IMG/VR virus record: IMGVR_UViG_3300027734_000038
DNA: 64,000 nucleotides
Source of the DNA: a virus
Reading direction: 5' to 3' (one strand)
Shown: one piece after another, positions 24,580 through 24,684 of the stretch
Layout of the letters: each line of letters begins with the position of its first letter
Numbering within the stretch: the first letter of the stretch is position 1
Position numbers and translations under genes: made by a program
The notes under the pieces: generated by a model
What the model saw: only the letters and a program-made list of their open reading frames with translations
Databases searched by the model: none
Told to the model about the DNA's origin: nothing

Positions 24580-24608
24580 TTGACAAAGTAACATAAGTAG
24601 TGTATTAT
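24580..24608 (+). promoter_or_regulatory. Sigma70-type promoter
   Basis: TTGACA-17nt-TATTAT, 9 nt before the tRNA-like RNA. Confidence 0.7.
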
Positions 24609-24617
24609 GGTTTAAAT

Positions 24618-24684
24618 GCGGTGTGTGATAGCACGACAGAAGATACCCTCTTTTGTTATCTGAGCAAAGCAGACCACCGCTCCA
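24618..24684 (+). ncRNA. Non-canonical tRNA-Gly-like RNA (67 nt)
   Basis: GCGGTG/CACCGC acceptor plus T-CCA; mini D hairpin; 9-bp stem with TACCC loop; T arm lacking TTC. Confidence 0.75.

Follow-up and report, generated by a model that had tools for sequence, protein, structure and literature searches.

What a phage would gain from a second, stripped-down tRNA-Gly placed directly before a normal one is the question raised by the window analyzed here, a 64,000-nucleotide stretch of the viral record IMGVR_UViG_3300027734_000038. The window covers a portion of a T4-like phage replication region (gp46-like protein, clamp loader, DNA polymerase, UvsX and helicase) and contains a cluster of five tRNA genes. 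Within this cluster, a 67-nt tRNA-Gly-like RNA (24618-24684, plus strand), a candidate non-ribosomal glycyl carrier, ends 5 nt upstream of a canonical tRNA-Gly(UCC), the decoding copy (24690-24763, plus strand), as the initial annotation had described. Directly after this tRNA-Gly, the segment 24761-24990 is ORF-free and has a multi-helix RNA fold (z = -3.85); it has no Rfam match, and two lake metatranscriptomes yielded identical contigs that span part of it.

The architecture first proposed for the 67-nt RNA could be read directly from the window and was reproduced by the predicted fold (z = -3.43, with 0 of 200 shuffled sequences equally stable). The acceptor has 6 bp (GCGGTG/CACCGC, 24618-24623 pairing with 24675-24680), pair 7:66 is a mismatch, and the U73 equivalent at 24681 is followed by an encoded CCA (24682-24684). 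The acceptor encloses a 3-bp D-like hairpin whose 4-nt loop, AUAG, lacks GG (24625-24634), a 9-bp anticodon-like arm (24635-24657) with the loop UACCC at 24644-24648, and a 4-bp T-like arm with the loop AGCAAAG (24659-24673), all on the plus strand. The anticodon equivalent had been left as either ACC or CCC; since the invariant CC of the family occupies loop positions 3-4, CCC is ruled out and ACC stands, with A34-C35-C36 at 24645-24647. A predicted sigma-70-type promoter-like site precedes the RNA (24580-24608, plus strand; TTGACA at 24580-24585, a 17-nt spacer and TATTAT at 24603-24608). The RNA thus appears to have a promoter of its own, as claimed, but it is not first in line, because it sits mid-cluster with a tRNA-Cys upstream at 24482. 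Two short metatranscriptome contigs cover portions of the RNA; their depth is 2, and they do not show that it is expressed.

To establish whether this RNA belongs to a family, viral sequences were scanned with a pattern that fixed only the acceptor ends and U73 and left the loop CC out. The scan returned 114 matches, including 37 clear homologous loci of 66-69 nt, and the family, which occurs in T4-like phages, ranges from 63 to 70 nt. All four helices covary across 46 sequences, the kind of homologue support that had been proposed as a check. Pairing holds in 96% of cells of the first alignment, where 12 of 21 pairs show two-sided changes (12-14 across alignments); the covariation score is 0.45-0.61 vs 0.15-0.17 for shuffled and at most 0.14 for slid alignments. 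The signal includes the third pair of the D-like hairpin, every pair of the anticodon-like arm (8-9 bp in the family), the T-like arm and, in the broader 46-sequence alignment, acceptor pairs 5 and 6. A promoter-like site lies upstream of 34 of 60 homologues vs 94 of 5000 random windows (1.9%); for canonical tRNA-Gly genes the figure is 12 of 66. A decaying tRNA pseudogene or a chance fold would agree with the lack of any ARAGORN or Rfam call for the 67-nt RNA, which also found no blastn match among cultured phages. This explanation is refuted by the compensatory changes in four helices and by retention of the RNA across marine and freshwater lineages, and almost no weight is left to it. The short RNA is confirmed as a real conserved family.

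The search models had limits of their own. Model R1 missed the divergent members in G015 and G018, both recovered by a descriptor search, and model R2 missed 74-nt forms; R2 negatives in 13 cultured genomes without a full reading were therefore not counted. Several loci carry tandem pairs of short-RNA subtypes 3' of the 421-aa gene discussed below, mostly one with the loop NNCCC and one with the loop GUCCA (L032:287-430, L070:1955-2094, L078:4120-4259, L086:4377-4516, L626:4567-4708, L639:1877-2015 and L640:5716-5854). At L058:1144-1215, a tRNA-like sequence of 72 nt shares the acceptor of the short RNA; no Mom-like ORF was seen nearby.

Conservation within the family separates two sets of positions. 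Known determinants of glycylation are G1-C72, the second acceptor pair, U73, C35 and C36 (PMC7826273; PMC9976931). The 67-nt RNA has the bacterial glycine identity set (G1-C72, C2-G71, U73, C35 and C36), which bears out the U73, C2:G71 and C35/C36 assignments of the initial annotation, and the set is kept across the family. Variants with other acceptor sequences still have G1-C72, C2-G71, U73 and the loop CC, which is invariant though absent from the first search pattern. Position 34 was tallied over the 46 sequences after hand correction of four shifted alignment rows: about 23 have U, 19 have A, 3 have C and 1 has G. The marks of a canonical decoding tRNA-Gly are missing from the 67-nt RNA: it has no 7-bp acceptor, no D-loop GG, no T-loop TTC and no 7-nt anticodon loop with U33 and R37, and tRNA models do not call it. 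Across the family, D-loop GG occurs in 3 of 46 members, every subtype breaks U33 or purine 37 (C37 or non-U33), and the T loops start with AGC (19), TGC (17), TGA (5) or TGT (3) and never with TTC. TGC or TGT in place of TTC is a mark of staphylococcal non-proteogenic tRNA-Gly (PMC7826273), and this type of T loop is present at the family level, the window RNA having AGC. The full-size cloverleaf of the staphylococcal lineage is not found in the family, which has 63-70 nt, another architecture and phage carriers. The staphylococcal type is further defined by weak binding to EF-Tu and preferential use by a transferase, properties that the short RNA may share. At the level of sequence, the positions read by glycyl-tRNA synthetase (GlyRS) are conserved and those needed for decoding are lost.

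These losses bear on whether the RNA could be an unusual but working translational tRNA-Gly, one that reads, for example, GGU codons in an AT-rich phage genome. Among triplets other than UCC, ACC is the most frequent, and pelagiphage forms retain a 74-nt cloverleaf, both of which would suit a decoding role. The 5-nt loop, C37 or non-U33, the missing TTC and D-loop GG, the 7:66 mismatch, the occurrence of all four bases at position 34 and the adjacent canonical tRNA-Gly nevertheless make such a role very unlikely.

If the RNA is a glycyl donor, it needs an enzyme. The initial annotation named two Mom-like GNATs, both of which belong to PF14236: a 421-aa DruA/DUF4338-like protein (15350-16615, plus strand) and a 368-aa DruA-like paralogue with a modelled GNAT fold (32925-34031, plus strand). 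Only the first proved to be linked to the RNA, which makes it the best candidate for a partner enzyme. A homologue of the 421-aa gene ends 24-134 nt before the start of the RNA at 20 loci, which represent 6 protein clusters (80% identity), and the RNA directly follows this gene in 11 of the 37 loci that were found without a protein criterion. A promoter-like site lies between gene and RNA in the loci inspected. Elsewhere the RNA is 6-9.5 kb downstream of the 421-aa gene, within a tRNA cluster, as in this window (8 kb). The RNA was never found adjacent to the 368-aa gene, nor closer to it than 6.5 kb. In the window, a peptide deformylase gene (14751-15350) is located between gp46 and the 421-aa gene.

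Gene content points the same way. A deformed tRNA-Gly is present in 11 of 11 near-complete genomes with the 421-aa gene vs 0-1 of 9 without it. Seven of the eleven have the short form (G010, G015, G018, G023, G039, G057 and G061) and four a 74-nt form with the T loop AGC, GGC or GTC (HTVC008M, Mosig, G058 and G056); HTVC008M encodes a single tRNA, a Gly(ACC) whose T-loop reads AGC and whose D-loop lacks GG. Two incomplete fragments, G060 and G062, contain the 421-aa gene and no RNA within the fragment. Five fully read cyanophages with the 368-aa gene only have canonical tRNA-Gly and no deformed RNA, and Mosig and G056 have the RNA in the absence of the 368-aa gene. The 368-aa gene, an accessory gene that the RNA does not track, was consequently rejected as partner, and the expected co-occurrence with DUF4338-like genes holds for the 421-aa gene and fails for the 368-aa gene alone. 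Four relatives with neither DruA-like gene have no short form, although one of them, DLP_6, has one odd Gly(UCC). This DLP_6 tRNA (KU682439.2, 110267-110341) has a TTT T loop, no D-loop GG and an A3-U70 pair, and the genome lacks both DruA-like and Mom genes.

Fisher's test gives p of about 1e-5 to 1e-4 for the co-occurrence, a value not relied on because the genomes are not phylogenetically independent. The 421-aa gene is core in the freshwater clade (94 of 94 spanning loci, many selected by that gene), so the co-occurrence partly reflects shared ancestry. Since this ancestry inflates the counts, repeated direct adjacency is the stronger argument. The 368-aa gene is found in 30 of 44 UvsX-anchored loci. 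In G043 (C1:14962-15833), a TGA interrupts its homologue, with the 421-aa gene and the RNA both still present, and a homologue in Synechococcus phage S-SCSM2R (PQ898602.1, 133706-134827) was annotated by its depositors as 'methylcarbamoylase mom'.

The label Mom-like holds for the fold and not for the family. The predicted structure of the 368-aa protein (pLDDT 93.6) is a GNAT fold; a single-sequence fold of the same protein was discarded (pLDDT 33). Against 48,161 chains, its top match is Mu Mom 8bv8 (Z 10.4, rmsd 3.4, 167 residues aligned), a score that lies within 1 of ordinary acetyl-CoA GNATs and is thus a tie, and Foldseek ranks Mom 22nd. The GNAT fold of the 421-aa protein is inferred from this paralogue. 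No profile match between DruA-like proteins and Mom was found by hhalign (probability 0.3%), the DruA-like proteins have no PDB sequence hit, and Pfam assigns them to PF14236 only, not to PF25680. Formation of 6-NcmdA in DNA is a criterion of the Mom family. The catalytic residues given for Mom in PMC13219725 are R111, S124, D149 and R151, and no equivalents are evident in the DruA-like model, as judged by secondary-structure register alone. DruA-like proteins are not members of the Mom family, and their kinship with Mom is at the level of fold only; these enzymes may work like Mom. The genomes tested contain no PF25680 gene, in a search whose positive control worked, and so no true Mom competes there as user of the RNA.

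True Mom genes have RNAs of their own. The same scan recovered tRNA-Gly-like RNAs of 73-76 nt with the acceptor of the short RNA, and each of the 8 tested either overlaps one end (5' or 3') of a PF25680 Mom gene scoring above the cut-off or lies 1.2 kb from such a gene. Among 13 relatives of one RNA-linked Mom gene, 8 have the RNA and none is detectable in 5. Thus deformed tRNA-Gly species are found alongside GNATs of two distinct families. The 76-nt RNAs overlap the 5' end of the Mom reading frame in L011, L033, L049, L087 and L101 and the 3' end in L067 and L113; in translation they give a recurring GGSxPTSPLQ-like motif, so the annotated Mom termini may in some cases come from reading through the RNA gene. 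A CUA-anticodon tRNA was called in the cluster at L087:2885-2960. The statement in the initial annotation that Mom uses Gly-tRNA was correct: PMC13219725 describes transfer of glycine from Gly-tRNA-Gly to adenine N6, with all host isoacceptors accepted. That Mu Mom works with ordinary host tRNA-Gly, as stated there, and that no RNA is detectable in 5 of the 13 Mom relatives both count against the donor reading.

Two further explanations assign the RNA another role. Phage tRNAs that counter tRNA-targeting defences are known, and the short RNA could be a decoy that absorbs a host factor attacking or sensing tRNA-Gly, such as an anticodon nuclease or a tRNA acetyltransferase toxin, or that titrates GlyRS, with no part in donation. 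An RNA with its own promoter-like site that keeps recognition elements only would suit this purpose, as would the location of the RNA within tRNA clusters of many genomes and the tandem arrangement of its subtypes. A nuclease decoy should however conserve the anticodon loop, where position 34 is free. Nor would a decoy be expected to follow one GNAT gene by 24-134 nt in several lineages, or to have sister RNAs inside true Mom genes; we regard this role as unlikely. The RNA could also be a substrate or inhibitor of the 421-aa GNAT, for instance if the enzyme acetylates Gly-tRNA in the manner of TacT and the RNA buffers it, or could donate glycine to protein or lipid instead of DNA. The gene linkage would then be the same, acetyl-CoA GNATs tie with Mom in the fold match, Mom catalytic residues are not evident, and TacT acts on Gly-tRNA-Gly (PMC13219725). 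The sister RNAs beside true Mom enzymes, for which donor chemistry is established, and the location of both DruA-like genes among DNA replication genes argue the other way, and this explanation too is improbable.

Comparative evidence supports an RNA of glycine identity that does not decode and is linked to a GNAT of Mom-like fold; the RNA is probably a private glycine carrier, perhaps one for disguising phage DNA. A stripped-down tRNA-Gly would be transcribed from its own predicted promoter and, with its identity set retained, charged by the host GlyRS. The broken elbow, the interrupted acceptor-T helix and the unconstrained wobble base would bar it from EF-Tu and the ribosome, and the 421-aa DruA-like GNAT, given its linkage and fold, could move the activated glycine from the RNA to an acceptor. 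Charging, escape from EF-Tu and glycyl transfer by the 421-aa protein are, taken together, reasonably likely. The analogy with Mu Mom and the position of the gene among replication genes point to phage DNA, modified against restriction, as the most likely acceptor; this is the weakest step, and with it the whole scheme falls a little short of an even chance. As in staphylococci, a private donor might avoid drawing on the translation pool during infection. The wider proposal, that aquatic T4-like phages of a widespread group possess a previously undescribed two-part DNA hypermodification system made of a DruA-family GNAT catalytically distinct from Mom and a minimal, phage-encoded glycyl-carrier RNA that would bypass the ribosome, is tentative and slightly less likely than not.

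If true, the scheme would give DruA/DUF4338 a testable biochemical function and possibly add a new modified base, show the lower size limit of a natural GlyRS substrate, and extend dedicated non-ribosomal tRNAs from the staphylococcal cell wall to phage DNA chemistry. The short RNA exemplifies a class of phage RNA missed by tRNA finders. Cultured carriers of a deformed tRNA-Gly are available for direct test in HTVC008M (both genes) and Mosig (421-aa type only), with S-SSM7, S-SM2 and S-PRM1 (368-aa type only) as natural controls.

Three elements are already known separately: dedicated non-ribosomal tRNA-Gly, DNA glycylation that depends on tRNA, and a tRNA-like locus embedded in a Mom gene. 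A literature search of incomplete coverage turned up neither the short RNA family nor a connection between it and DruA-like phage GNATs; the accessible part of the Phold preprint (10.1101/2025.08.05.668817) includes phage DruA-like proteins and describes no RNA partner or chemistry. What is new here is the choice between two paralogues, the series from 74 nt to 63 nt and the cultured phages that allow a direct test. Both window proteins belong to the family of Druantia DruA/DUF4338 (PF14236); the gene is here a phage core gene surrounded by replication genes. With Mu Mom (PF25680, 8bv8), the top structural match, the DruA-like family shares the phage GNAT fold; the window enzymes differ in belonging to PF14236 and in having no sequence match to Mom, which uses any host tRNA-Gly isoacceptor and for which the accessible part of PMC13219725 describes no phage-encoded donor. 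The conserved 76-bp tRNA-Gly-like locus reported in 2011 inside a mom homologue of Dehalococcoides ssrA islands (PMC3146451) is likewise tRNA-Gly-like, has a variable wobble ('DCC') and is tied to a Mom gene, in a position that matches the 73-76 nt sister forms. The Dehalococcoides locus is a full-length element within the gene, and the accessible part of the source proposes no function for it, whereas the window RNA is smaller and free-standing, and its link is to a DruA-like GNAT. The staphylococcal NP1-NP3 tRNA-Gly (PMC7826273) have the same GlyRS determinants, a non-TTC T loop and a decoding tRNA-Gly alongside, and they serve a GNAT-fold transferase, which resembles the candidate GNAT link of the short RNA. 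NP1-NP3 are full-size UCC cloverleaves of a bacterial chromosome that act in peptidoglycan synthesis, whereas the short RNA is phage-encoded and has 63-70 nt, a 3-bp D hairpin, an 8-9-bp anticodon stem and a free position 34.
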